Of a DNA stretch of 64,000 nt, positions 41,957-46,667 are shown in pieces. A program made the translations under genes and the position numbers. This stretch comes from an uncultured Chthonomonadaceae bacterium (GTDB taxonomy: Bacteria; Armatimonadota; Chthonomonadetes; Chthonomonadales; Chthonomonadaceae). Below the pieces are notes generated by a model, which saw only the letters and a program-made list of their open reading frames with translations, had not been told where the DNA came from and did no database searches. The number at the start of each line of letters is the position of its first letter. Positions within the stretch are counted from its first letter, which is position 1. Location: positions 64,001-128,000 of the forward strand of contig CAWIEK010000068.1 of the NCBI GenBank assembly GCA_963835065.1, written 5' to 3'.

Positions 41957-42387
41957 GCGGTAAGCGCAGGGGCCGTACATCTATCTCTTCCCCAATCAGC
42001 GGGAACGCCGACCTTTGCCAACAAGTGGGGCAAGCAAAGGATGAAGGAGGAATGATAAGAGATAAGAGTATGTAGAGGCATCGTCGAAATCTTGGCAATA
42101 CAGCGCTTCCAGCCCGATGTCTCGTTGTGTCTGGTTGTAGAAGAGAGGCGTCATGGCCTCAGCAGCATCAGGGCGAACGGGAGGGGTGAAACATAGGACT
42201 GGCACCTCCCTTCTTGTCGGTATAACGTCTGAATAGTAGACGTATGTTTATATTTAGACAGGGCGAGTGAGGCAAAGGTTTCGTTTGTTTCGCGTTGTTT
42301 GGCTCTTTTTTCTATCTTTTTTTGTGGGATTGGTTTTGTGGGAGGGTTGCTGTTAGCGTCGTAGGGGAACGAGCAGGAGGCGCAGGG

Positions 42388-42786
42388 ATGGAGCCGAAGA
42401 TGGGCAAGCGGATTGTGAAAATTCTTCTGGTTAACCCAATTTGCCAGAAAGACAGTTATGTACACTACGCCACCTATAAACTTGTGGAAGGTGAAGCCTG
42501 TCTTTCTGGAACCTACTATTCGGAGGCTTTTAGTGACAAATGGTTTGTAGGAAAAATGATTCCTACAAAGTATTCGAGGCGTCATTCCAAACTGTTAATG
42601 ATTAGACCTCTTGGAGAGAAAAGATTGCTGACCGATCAAGAAATGCTTCAACTGGAAACAGAGTACGATTTCAGAGCCGCCACACAGAGGCCGGAAACGC
42701 CGCCAGAGCAACTTATGGACAAATCACATAGAAGTTGGACATTGGGCGGCAGAATTTCCTCTCGTCATTGTCCAATGTTTACCTGA
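42388..42786 (+). CDS. variable-core family A, copy 1 (MEPKMGKRIV...)
   Basis: AGGAGG RBS and first ~10 codons shared with 43814 and 45367; degenerate FRAA...PEQL tail. Confidence 0.65.
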   Translation: MEPKMGKRIVKILLVNPICQKDSYVHYATYKLVEGEACLSGTYYSEAFSDKWFVGKMIPTKYSRRHSKLLMIRPLGEKRLLTDQEMLQLETEYDFRAATQRPETPPEQLMDKSHRSWTLGGRISSRHCPMFT

Positions 42787-42832
42787 TTTGTCCATTATGT
42801 GGACGTCTGTGGAGCAGGAGTAAGGGCGCAAG

Positions 42833-43411
42833 ATGAAACGTGAACTGGCGCGCTTTTGGTACAGGTTTAAGAACTGGTTTCGCACAAAACCGGCGCCGGG
42901 GGAGCCGCTGACGTTCCTGTGCGGGTCGGAAGAAGAATTACGACGGGTGACAACATGGATGTGCCATGCGAATGAGAAAGTGTTTCTTGAACAAAAGAAA
43001 ACGATTGTTTTCTACCATGCCGCAACGCCCTATTGTAAAGCACGTGTTTCTTCACAACCCATAAAGCTTATCCATAGCTTCATTCACGAACCGCTTAATC
43101 ACGAATGGAAATATATCCTTCAATGGAGTACAGTGATTTTGGAACACAACCAATTTACAGGCACATACTGGGACTTTATGCCAGAAATGGTTTGTCATTT
43201 CCCGGAAATGATTGGCAATCTACCAATGCGAGGGTTGCCGCAGTGGTTCCATGTATGTGAAATCCCCTTAACTTTAGAAGTAACTGTTCACCCTCCCTCC
43301 GCCCATGAACGCGCCGAAGCCTTGCTTGCTCTCTCGGAATGGCTCGACGGCAAAGTAAGCGAACAGGAAAAGCGCGAACTGCTGCAACTGCCCAATGATG
43401 TGGAAATCTGA
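42833..43411 (+). CDS. variable-core family B, copy 1
   Basis: AGGAG RBS; termini nearly identical to 46080-46667. Confidence 0.8.
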   Translation: MKRELARFWYRFKNWFRTKPAPGEPLTFLCGSEEELRRVTTWMCHANEKVFLEQKKTIVFYHAATPYCKARVSSQPIKLIHSFIHEPLNHEWKYILQWSTVILEHNQFTGTYWDFMPEMVCHFPEMIGNLPMRGLPQWFHVCEIPLTLEVTVHPPSAHERAEALLALSEWLDGKVSEQEKRELLQLPNDVEI

Positions 43412-43652
43412 CCGCCTGCGCGCCATTGAGCGGGGGTGTGAAAGCAGGTAGTTTTATATGCTAAGCGGCCATGCGGAGTAACTTCGTAGTTTTTTGCAAC
43501 CCGTGCTAGGCCGTGAACGACCTGTCTATGTGGTCTGCGACCAACCGGTCTGCGACCGGAAATTCTACGAACTTACTCTGTGCGGATGCTTAGTATTTTC
43601 CACAGAGGTACAACGACACTTTTCTCTACTTAAAATTTGTTCTGGCATGAGA

Positions 43653-43684
43653 AGGGCACGGCGGGAAGTCTTCCCGCCGTGCCC
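43653..43684. terminator. GC-rich hairpin (terminator-like)
   Basis: GGGCACGGCGGGAAG-T-CTTCCCGCCGTGCCC; no clear U-tract. Confidence 0.45.
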
Positions 43685-43717
43685 CAACTATTTCACAAGC
43701 CTCAATTTTGTCCGGCC

Positions 43718-43746
43718 TTGCAAGTCTGTGGAATTGTCGCTATAAT
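43718..43746 (+). promoter_or_regulatory. sigma70 promoter upstream of family A copy 2
   Basis: TTGCAA-N17-TATAAT. Confidence 0.65.
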
Positions 43747-43813
43747 GTACGCATCCGGCAACAAGGCCGTAACGGGCTATTGGGTATGCGGGCAAAGGCA
43801 GGAGGGCGCGGGG

Positions 43814-44254: not shown

Positions 44255-44350
44255 AAGTAGACGTGACTTTACTCTGCGATTGATTCGATACCTTGCTCTC
44301 CATACTTCCGACTTGCTGCTGACACTGACACGGCAGCAAGGATAATATCT

Positions 44351-45301
44351 ATGAAAATAGAGCGATTGCTTCCGAAGTGGGTTTTGCGCTCGCTTATGTT
44401 GATAGGCGTCGTACTTTCCTGTCTCCTTGTTTATAAGACATTTACATTTACCATGACAGGCAGATACGCCCGCTATTTGACGGGAGGCTCTTTCTCTGGT
44501 ACACACCCGGATATGTCCCCTGACGGCAACACCATTGTCTTTGCCACACCACACACAGGCCGAGGGGACATCTACAGCATTTCGGCGGATGGGACTTCCC
44601 GAAAACAACTTACCTCCTGCTGGAACTATGAAGGGGAACCCCATTACGCGCCAAAGGGAGATTGGATTGCTTACATTCGAGAGGATGAGGAAGGAATAAC
44701 GCATGTGTGGGTGATGCGCGCGGATGGTTCGGGGCAAAGACAACTCACACATGGAACCAATCATGAACATTCTCCCTGTTTTTCTCCTGACGGAACGCAG
44801 ATTGTCTTTACAAGAAGCTATCCCAATACTGACACGGCTTTGTTTGAAGTGTCTGTAAGCGACAACACTGTCCATCCGCTCACACAATCCGGGCAGACGG
44901 AAGGACAAGCGAGTTTTGACCGCGCGGGCAATCGGCTTGTATTTGCCTCGGGGCCACCTGCGGGGGAATGGCTCCTCAAGACAACGGGAGAGAAAACCTT
45001 TGTTGGCGCGGGCGGCTTATCGTCGTGCTTGTCTCCCGATGGGAATCATATTGCCTTCATCAACAATGCCGATAAGCCTCAACTGTGTGTAATGAACAGT
45101 GACGGTTCCGGTGTGAAAACGATTTATGGATCACTGGAATCGTTGTATGAGCCAGGCGGATACATGGAGGCTTGCGCCTTCTCTCCAGATAGCAAACATA
45201 TCCTTTTCTTAGAAGCGCGAGAACAGGACCGGGGCACTGGCTTGATCTCCTTAATCGGCGTGGACGGCAAAGGTCTTCAGCGTATAGGCAGCAGTTTCTA
45301 A
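44351..45301 (+). CDS. TolB-like PD40 beta-propeller protein, membrane anchored
   Basis: Repeated SPDG/APKG...I.F motifs, MRADGSGQRQLT. Confidence 0.88.
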   Translation: MKIERLLPKWVLRSLMLIGVVLSCLLVYKTFTFTMTGRYARYLTGGSFSGTHPDMSPDGNTIVFATPHTGRGDIYSISADGTSRKQLTSCWNYEGEPHYAPKGDWIAYIREDEEGITHVWVMRADGSGQRQLTHGTNHEHSPCFSPDGTQIVFTRSYPNTDTALFEVSVSDNTVHPLTQSGQTEGQASFDRAGNRLVFASGPPAGEWLLKTTGEKTFVGAGGLSSCLSPDGNHIAFINNADKPQLCVMNSDGSGVKTIYGSLESLYEPGGYMEACAFSPDSKHILFLEAREQDRGTGLISLIGVDGKGLQRIGSSF

Positions 45302-45366
45302 ACAATATTCTTTAGGACACTCTTTGCAACTCTGAACAACAAAAACATAAAGCAGGAGGCGCAGGA

Positions 45367-45816
45367 ATGGAGCCGAAGACGGGCAAGCGGATTGTGAGCA
45401 AGAGGGAGTATGCGAAGGCGCAGGGCATTAAAGGTGGCCTCAATCTTGGCAGATTTGGCCTTCTACTTTTTTCCATCCTCTGGAGTTTGTTGGCTGGTCT
45501 TTACCTACTGCGCCTAGTAACGGGCATGTGGTGGGATGTTTCGCCTTTCCTAATCTGGGTCGCCTGTCTTACATGTGGGGGCGCATCCTACTTGTGTTAC
45601 CTCACCATGAAAGCCGTTGACCGTCGAATACAGGGATTTGAAAAAGTGCAGCCTCTCACCCGCGCCAACGCCGCCGATCTTCCCGCGCCTGACAGCCTTG
45701 TACGCGCCAGTTCAGAGCCGATGCAGGCACAGGAGGCCGTGTTGCTCAGGGCTGCCGCAGAGGAACAGGAACGGCATGAAGAGCAACTTGTACGAGCAGT
45801 GGAAGGGCCGGAGTGA
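45367..45816 (+). CDS. variable-core family A, copy 3 (two TM helices)
   Basis: MEPKTGKRIVS start; tail 46/50 aa identical to copy 2. Confidence 0.82.
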   Translation: MEPKTGKRIVSKREYAKAQGIKGGLNLGRFGLLLFSILWSLLAGLYLLRLVTGMWWDVSPFLIWVACLTCGGASYLCYLTMKAVDRRIQGFEKVQPLTRANAADLPAPDSLVRASSEPMQAQEAVLLRAAAEEQERHEEQLVRAVEGPE

Positions 45817-45896
45817 GGTCAAGCAATTTTACATGATATTCACTCCCGAACACATTCTTGCCAGGGGTTAAACCCCTGTCCCTATGGCCTGCCGAG

Positions 45897-46026
45897 TGCC
45901 GGGTATTGAAAATACCCGGCAGGAAAGTACAAGCGTCCTACGGACGCAGAACTCTGTAAATAAAGAATCGCGTCCGTAGGACGCTTGGCGGAACGCCACC
46001 GAGACGGGTACTTTCAGTACCCGGCA
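45897..46026. repeat. composite REP/MITE-like element, copy 2
   Basis: GCCGGGTATT-AATACCCGGC, ACAAGCGTCCTACGGACGC, GCGTCCGTAGGACGCTTG, CGGGTACT-AGTACCCG. Confidence 0.8.
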
Positions 46027-46079
46027 AAACGTGTCCGGGAGTGAATCAAATTTGCTGATGTGAAAAGGAGCGTCGGAAG

Positions 46080-46667
46080 ATGAAACCTGGACTGGCGCGC
46101 TTCTGGTATCGGTTCAAGAACTGGTTTCGCACAAAGCCGGGGCCGGGAGAGCCGCTACGATTTCTGTGCGGGTCGGAGGAAGAATTGCGGCGCGTGACGA
46201 CTTGGATGTGCCATTACTATTATCCTGACCCCTGTAATCCCTACGGCAAGGTTCATGTCACATACTCTGCGTCAGCACAATGCGGGCTGGAAAATTCAAG
46301 AATTCATTTCGACCACGTATGGCCTGTTGGTACATCAATGCCGTCTAACCAACCGTTCTCGGATGACAATGAGTTATTATTGATGTTCCGGGGCTGTCTG
46401 TTGATTTCAAGCCGCAACTTGTTTTCTGGTACTCAATGGATGGAGATACCAGTGTACCGGTCGTTTTTGCCGATAAACAACCCTCCGGGTTTGCGGAGGT
46501 TGCTTGGCATCGCAGAAGACCCTATCAACCTGACTGTGATTGTACAACCTCCCTCCCCACAAGAACGCGCCGAAGCCCTCTTGTCGCTTTCCGAATGGCT
46601 GGACGGCAAAGTAAGTGAGCAGGAAAAACGCGAACTGCTGCAATTGCCCGACGATGTAGAAGTCTGA
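46080..46667 (+). CDS. variable-core family B, copy 2
   Basis: AAGGAG RBS; termini nearly identical to 42833-43411. Confidence 0.8.
   Translation: MKPGLARFWYRFKNWFRTKPGPGEPLRFLCGSEEELRRVTTWMCHYYYPDPCNPYGKVHVTYSASAQCGLENSRIHFDHVWPVGTSMPSNQPFSDDNELLLMFRGCLLISSRNLFSGTQWMEIPVYRSFLPINNPPGLRRLLGIAEDPINLTVIVQPPSPQERAEALLSLSEWLDGKVSEQEKRELLQLPDDVEV

Follow-up and report, generated by a model that had tools for sequence, protein, structure and literature searches.

We analyzed a 64,000-nt window of DNA from an uncultured Chthonomonadaceae soil bacterium (G000:C68:64001-128000, where G000 is the genome holding the window and C68 its contig). It contains an array of two small-protein families, here called A and B, in which conserved ends enclose highly divergent cores. 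We found that at least one of these cores has moved recently between species and between loci. The region may be one of several fast-turnover, polyimmunity-like loci of the genus (probability of roughly 0.45), the qualifier marking an array that would work like a polyimmunity locus without necessarily belonging to that class. The relatives used for comparison, G001 and G002, belong to the same genus as G000; the closest named relative is a Chthonomonadaceae metagenome-assembled genome (L001).

Two protein families with constant ends and variable cores

The gene order is A1-B1-A2-TolB-like-A3-REP-like-B2 (REP, repetitive extragenic palindrome), with every gene on the (+) strand. All six open reading frames (ORFs) and the REP-like element lie where the first-pass annotation had placed them (Table 1). 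A2, A3, B1, B2, and the TolB-like gene are intact, and A1 is a remnant. As had been claimed, the array is AT-richer than its surroundings, with a GC content of 0.505 vs 0.583 in the remaining window and a GC content at third codon positions (GC3) of 0.45 to 0.60 in the array genes vs 0.73 to 0.76 in three flanking genes.

Within each family, the ends were described as nearly invariant and the middles as barely alignable. Mean identity was 0.21 in the core vs 0.72 in the tail for 87 of 120 A proteins, whose cores form 70 clusters at 40% identity, and 0.73 and 0.74 at the two ends vs 0.24 in the core for 18 of 20 B proteins. The description thus holds for A and needs a qualification for B, whose cores keep an NxFxG motif and a Tyr. 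GC3 is lower in the cores than in the ends, both in A (0.53 vs 0.62 to 0.68) and in B1 (0.41 vs 0.60 to 0.65). At the DNA level, the three A copies do share the reported upstream block (54 nt at the 5′ end, 74–87% identity), A2 and A3 have a common 149-nt 3′ block (85%), and B1 and B2 are 85% identical over 141 nt at the 5′ end and 80% identical over 142 nt at the 3′ end.

The array is not a one-off: G000 holds 14 full-length A matches, 13 partial rows, and five short B genes (among the A matches, the C27/C29 and C12 pairs look like duplicated segments). Four of these five B genes have an A no more than 1.5 kb away, and the zones so defined make up 0.65% of the genome (two of the four are in the window). 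The number of A matches was 22 in G001, 25 in G002, and 3 in G025, with none in G003 and G034; among the genomes sampled, the A profile was positive in 5 of 10 from the family and in 0 of 190 from elsewhere in the phylum (19 candidates scored per genome). The short-B profile was positive in 4 of 61 genomes. Neither family had been recognized at first pass, and we found no meaningful match for A or B in Pfam, NCBIfam, PADLOC, PDB sequences, or the ESM Atlas, nor for B in PHROGs. No A relatives were found in viral contigs, and no distant B matches in plasmids or phages. A search of titles and abstracts returned no description of A, B, or the A tail; the supplements of PMC3482391 and PMC7159879 could list these families. 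Judged by these searches, A and B appear to be undescribed, multi-copy families restricted to Chthonomonadaceae relatives.

A core that moved between species

The evidence for transfer comes from A2 and a gene at a different locus of G002, which differ at 17 of 219 core positions vs 39 of 147 tail positions (Fisher p = 1.4e-6). At third codon positions, the differences number 7/73 in the core vs 23/49 in the tail (p = 3.9e-6) and vs 96/283 in the orthologues of the flanking epimerase (p = 2e-5). Thus, the two cores are 92% identical, with a proportion of synonymous differences (pS) of 0.10 to 0.12 vs 0.36 to 0.59 in nineteen orthologue pairs. The DNA upstream of the two genes is unrelated, and the A2 tail end is close to that of A3 (Table 1). 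A2 records, in a form that can be dated, the passage of a variable core from one species to another within a gene.

More broadly, core and tail identity are uncorrelated (r = −0.05; 3,741 pairs from 87 A proteins), and the nearest partner by core was the nearest by tail in 0 of 31 genes, both tests being weakened by tail synonymous sites that are near saturation. In G002, the orthologous chromosomal site is occupied by one A gene, whose core is unrelated, and has neither a B nor a propeller gene. In an independent metagenome, an A3-like gene is followed by another A start, and B ends are joined across unlike or unknown middles; positions 44238-44771 of the window were left uncovered by reads, an uninformative gap. 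The first-pass annotation had held that few paralogues, congruent histories of ends and cores, and cores conserved at orthologous loci would indicate ordinary old duplications; we found many paralogues, uncoupled cores and tails, and an unrelated A core at the G002 site.

The array as a possible polyimmunity-like locus

The heterogeneous polyimmunity loci of polymorphic toxin systems described by Zhang et al. (2012, PMC3482391) vary between strains and close relatives and consist of genes for unrelated small proteins, placed in tandem in one orientation with no toxin gene; immunity types include ankyrin, HEAT, and two-transmembrane (two-TM) proteins. The window array is likewise tandem and co-oriented, has no toxin gene (no RHS core lies on C68), and differs in content from the orthologous G002 site, and ankyrin, HEAT, two-TM, and SUKH types are present in arrays related to it. 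Specifically, A genes or bare tails alternate with passengers in a G002 array that ends in a short B. Passenger TM-ankyrins align over most of their length with an ankyrin gene downstream of RHS in G000 (25–29% identity, E 3e-10 to 4e-20), a passenger fragment has a 41% match to another RHS-downstream gene, on contig C46 a TM-ankyrin and a remnant of an A head precede a SUKH-4 gene (E 1.3e-14), and one gene combining a TM segment, HEAT-like repeats, and the tail lies 0.7 kb after an RHS toxin gene. In all, G000 has 21 RHS cores. Compared with the loci of Zhang et al., the window system differs in that A and B match no known immunity family, the A tail is cytoplasmic and constant across the order, exchange occurs inside a gene, no recombinase is adjacent, and each genome has many loci.

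Under the polyimmunity-like reading, A would be a minimal membrane protein whose variable helices and loop serve recognition and whose cytoplasmic tail, built on three LLR motifs, may be a docking motif for a common partner. B could be tethered to the membrane and represent a truncated version of a domain found in an AAA/vWA-peptidase-linked system, its scaffold being fixed and its binding face variable. In the weakest step, the repertoire would neutralize or sense incoming toxins, phage proteins, or mobile-element proteins at the envelope.

Several observations weigh against this reading. None of the A or B genes is inside an RHS cassette; tail loci within 10 kb of an RHS core number 2 of 67 vs 1.7 expected; a credible tail gene was not found in 16 of the 17 RHS loci of relatives examined; and the number of A genes does not track that of RHS, G001 having 22 A matches and one RHS core. 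The window TolB-like gene had no match among 17 RHS-associated genes, and of the 12 TM-ankyrin copies, no more than three have an A nearby. To these are added the lack of database matches for A and B noted above, a DNA-level mosaic shown for one case only, with tail synonymous sites near saturation, and five low-copy genomes whose 22 tail genes are mostly solitary and stand in unrelated housekeeping contexts with no recurring neighbor. Support for the arms-race role proposed at first pass is contextual and comes from the immunity-type passengers of related arrays; no window gene matches a known immunity family, and the tail genes show no enrichment around RHS cores.

RHS orphan toxin/immunity cassette arrays are present at G000:C53:449000-471000 (with a peptidase-like gene upstream at C53:470756) and C49:355000-366000, and an RHS gene at G000:C44:65590-70000 lies within what, by sequence inspection, appears to be a contractile-injection or baseplate cluster. 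Directly upstream of the large A array in G002 are EACC1-like, caspase, and HamB-like helicase genes (G002:C4:55436-58979; L023).

The triple-LLR tail and its possible role in signaling

A has a triple LLR[A/P] tail at its C-terminal end and is predicted to be a membrane protein with two helices. The AlphaFold2 (AF2) model of A3 comprises a strand (residues 8–10), helices 12–52 and 60–91, a strand (94–96), and a less confident tail, and 95 of 120 A homologues have two hydrophobic segments (Kyte-Doolittle heuristic). The tail consists of three L[LV]R[APGS] units, mostly spaced 13–16 residues apart by variable spacers, and is not confined to A. An iterated profile located it at 67 G000 loci (about 66 proteins), 47 of which have all three motifs. 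Most carriers have 280–450 residues, with a membrane hairpin and HEAT-like repeats: a hydrophobic segment was found in 43 of the 56 carriers of at least 120 aa, and HEAT matches in 11 of 23 tested (four above the cut-off). With a 50-position profile, 56 of the 61 genomes of the order were positive (36/36, 19/22, and 0/2 by family), with 3 to 84 matches per genome, in comparison with 0 of 181 genomes from families of the phylum outside the order, where 34 candidates were scored in each genome. A C-terminal motif specific to the order and present on up to 84 proteins per genome is, to all appearances, undescribed, and it is testable.

This distribution, the motif spacing, and the frequent hydrophobic and HEAT segments favor an alternative in which A and the HEAT-tail proteins would form one family of variable sensors or adaptors in the membrane, all signaling or recruiting via the tail, i.e., a sensor repertoire and not direct toxin neutralizers, with envelope stress, proteolysis, or immune signaling as possible outputs. 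We consider it possible but somewhat unlikely, in view of the missing conserved neighbor among the 22 tail genes of the low-copy genomes, the presence of PspA in genomes without the tail, and the weakness of the Pfam Rv2743c match on A3 (E 0.0075). PspA does not discriminate, as it occurs in 59 of 61 genomes, including four of the five tail-less ones. Clp_N gave 8 matches in ~4 genes, with no expansion. In a separate observation, pspA and a tail-bearing gene ~1.3 kb upstream of it lie on one strand (G011:C245:1386-3519), the only such close case among the matches listed.

A bolder proposal, which we regard as unlikely, is that of an order-wide modular receptor system in which tens of variable membrane proteins, both A and those with TM and HEAT segments, would share one cytoplasmic triple-LLR tail and a common effector. 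New specificities would be generated as foreign cores are recombined between head and tail, also across species, and short B proteins would be motif-less decoys or sensors derived from an undescribed AAA-DUF2201/DUF6915 conflict system. Receptors bearing immunoreceptor tyrosine-based activation motifs (ITAMs) offer an analogy for such a shared docking tail. If the tail has one partner, the result would be a bacterial variable-receptor, constant-signal system; otherwise, polyimmunity loci would be extended to new protein families.

Duplication and the nature of the ends

Hydrophobic helices tolerate substitution, and the variable cores might thus reflect ordinary lineage-specific duplication with relaxed constraint on helices and loops, occasional transfer, and no conflict role. 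Consistent with this, a second cross-species A pair, which served as a control and looks orthologous, is not mosaic, core and tail having diverged to the same extent (pS 0.55 vs 0.57), and the ratio of nonsynonymous (pN) to synonymous differences in the core of the A2 pair is ~0.7, not above 1. Set against the A2 mosaic, the replaced core at the orthologous site, the lower GC3 of the cores, and the recurring immunity-type passengers, this explanation appears improbable.

The first-pass annotation had also proposed that the constant flanks act as handles for swapping cores. The swapping is borne out by one clear mosaic and by the uncoupling of core and tail, but the ends turned out to be conserved as protein, not as DNA. 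Across 31 complete A genes, taken from the 59 tail hits of three genomes, with G001 and G002 represented by retrieved loci only, tail identity at the three codon positions was 0.72, 0.80, and 0.47, with a pS of 0.64 to 0.66 and a pN of 0.22 to 0.23. Six short B genes have the same codon pattern, with end identities of 0.34 to 0.84 at third positions vs 0.67 to 1.0 at second positions. Since third codon positions are the least conserved, pS far exceeds pN, and the same tail is found on dozens of unrelated HEAT-like proteins, the ends are kept as protein under purifying selection and mostly not as DNA handles.

In agreement with the reported absence of an integrase or reverse transcriptase (RT) nearby, PF00589 and PF00078 had no match on C68, with 6 and 2 matches elsewhere in G000 (serine recombinases were outside this search). 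We found no inverted repeat joining the ends in the array, and Rfam gave no linked structured RNA, with two chance-level matches. Integron cassettes, shufflons, and diversity-generating retroelements also hold variable modules between constant sequence; unlike these, the array has no linked integrase or RT, attC-like palindrome, or template repeat, and its constancy is at the protein level. Programmed cassette exchange with the ends as dedicated DNA handles could account for the A2 mosaic, for A genes that stay in frame around a foreign or very short core (A1; G002 C4:46862 and C4 near 48100), for bare tails preceding passengers, and for A2 and A3 tails having the lowest pS of 465 pairs, but the weak conservation of third positions and the missing repeat, RNA, integrase, and RT make it very improbable. 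Under the polyimmunity-like reading, swapping would need no dedicated recombinase and would result from homologous recombination or conversion of the ordinary kind within the conserved ends.

Family B and long-B operons

In the confident model of B1 (Table 1), the conserved ends correspond to helices 33–46 and 157–183 and the variable core to strands, loops, and one helix. The Foldseek comparison suggested at first pass gave no pdb or viral match at E ≤ 0.001 (best VIA Z 4.5), which is not proof of a new fold. The B domain occurs in 161 representatives, and a broader profile was positive in 15 of the 301 genomes of the phylum, one genus of a different family carrying many copies. Most distant matches (90 of 137) exceed 280 residues, and these long B genes stand in tandem behind AAA_5 and DUF2201 (G000 C44, G001, G002, and metagenome L139) or behind DUF6915 (L141, L144, L146, L150, L162-164, and L167), with exceptions to both settings (e.g., G000 C50 and L153-156). 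AAA_5 + DUF2201 operons followed by one to five divergent long-B genes were seen at G000:C44:480245-486137, L025:7058-14936, L165, and L139, and L162, L163, and L164 (family f6, genus g89) have DUF6915 followed by clusters of five to nine divergent long-B-like genes.

The AAA_5 + DUF2201 + long-B operon is a candidate undescribed conflict system. It resembles but does not match the MoxR-vWA ternary systems described by Kaur et al. (2020, PMC7159879). The likeness is that the operon has an AAA_5/MoxR-like ATPase and a gene with a vWA domain, followed by long B as the third, variable component. The vWA partner, however, is DUF2201 (metallopeptidase plus vWA), and long B had no VMAP, iSTAND, FtsH, or beta-propeller match in Pfam. 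No ATPase or vWA gene is at the locus beside the short B of the window.

There is also a likeness to the DUF6878-DUF6915 plasmid pair, in that DUF6915 stands at the head of long-B arrays from other families of the phylum and adjoins DUF6878 in 3 of 4 plasmid loci read, with a GWE.NDG-like motif in both. Profile comparison of B with DUF6878 was weak (probability 5%; hhalign E 0.74 and 0.0078, 3-sequence alignment), and PF21798 (DUF6878) matched 0 of 31 B members and 0 of 5 genomes. Unlike DUF6878, short B has no GWE.NDG-like motif (0/20). A W.Y.D-type motif after NxxxG, a pattern picked after data inspection, was present in 35 of the 121 distant B proteins and in none of the 20 close ones. Short B may have lost an N-terminal domain and this motif, gained an amphipathic helix, and been recruited beside A. 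The B domain is apparently undescribed, has no fold match, and occurs in variable arrays behind an AAA-DUF2201 pair or DUF6915.

The A1 remnant, repeat elements, and neighboring genes

Table 1. Features of the array in window coordinates
Feature	Position	Strand	Basis
Genome-wide intergenic repeat, MITE/REP-like, in the epimerase-array gap	41950..42371	.	208 blastn rows in G000
Shared 5′ block, ribosome-binding site and MEPK.GKRIV head	42373..42432	+	54-nt family D4
A1: A head, non-membrane core, last third of tail; MITE-interrupted	42388..42823	+	ORF now stops at 42786
Hairpin MITE, 79 bp, terminal inverted repeats, 3-bp TTA target duplication	42716..42794	.	Inverted repeat I1
B1: short B domain; N-terminal helix, helical scaffold, variable beta/loop core	42833..43411	+	AF2 pLDDT 83, pTM 0.78
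Putative promoter-like segment	43685..43783	+	Sequence match; 10/12 consensus at 43718-43746
A2: mosaic A gene	43814..44254	+	43814 to ~44093 common with G002 gene; 44174-44233 near A3 (57/60 identical)
Passenger: N-terminal hydrophobic segment and PD40/TolB-like beta-propeller	44351..45301	+	PD40 E 2.6e-21
A3: two transmembrane helices and triple-LLR tail	45367..45816	+	Hydrophobicity, motif, AF2 model
Nested inverted-repeat REP-like element, common in genome	45838..46046	.	I2-I4; 242 blastn rows
B2: short B, different core	46080..46667	+	Sequence comparison

A1 is not the full A member it had been taken for: it keeps the 10-residue head, a core without a membrane helix, and only the last LLR unit of the tail, which is interrupted by a miniature inverted-repeat transposable element (MITE). 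The original tail end and stop codon survive beyond the current ORF end (42798-42823), and this segment and the junction to B match an A-B junction on C45. The only candidate homologue of the A1 core among 5.8 billion proteins was A1 itself. A metagenome contig covers 42373-42681 with 32 differences. The MITE, which we presume to be IS5-like, has two further G000 copies (C7:7519-7604 and C12:19703-19790).

The 5′ block has 12 genome matches (up to six mismatches allowed), one of them preceding an unrelated protein at C53:334286. The resemblance of its sequence to the final codons of the A tail and the A1-B1 junction suggests that it probably derives from tandem coupled genes. The promoter-like segment recurs upstream of another small membrane gene (C53:435228). 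The TolB-like passenger scored 105 bits, below the NCBIfam TolB cut-off of 343, and no close paralogue of it was found in G000.

The repeat between the epimerase and the array is missing at the orthologous site of G002, where an A gene begins ~80 bp past the epimerase. In total, four different genome-wide intergenic repeat families lie in or beside the array (41950-42371, 43461-43593, 45838-46046, and 46800-46840; 23 to 242 blastn rows each), and the sequence examined has no tandem repeats of note. The epimerase itself (window 40558-41956) is split into two ORFs in G000 and unbroken in G002, and relative to the window one base is missing at 40927 from a metagenome contig; a one-base assembly error near this position may explain the split. 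Since the assembly may hold frameshift errors, counts of broken copies are uncertain. Elsewhere in G000, a DUF3037 gene pair directly follows an A-A-B array (C45:122607-124138).

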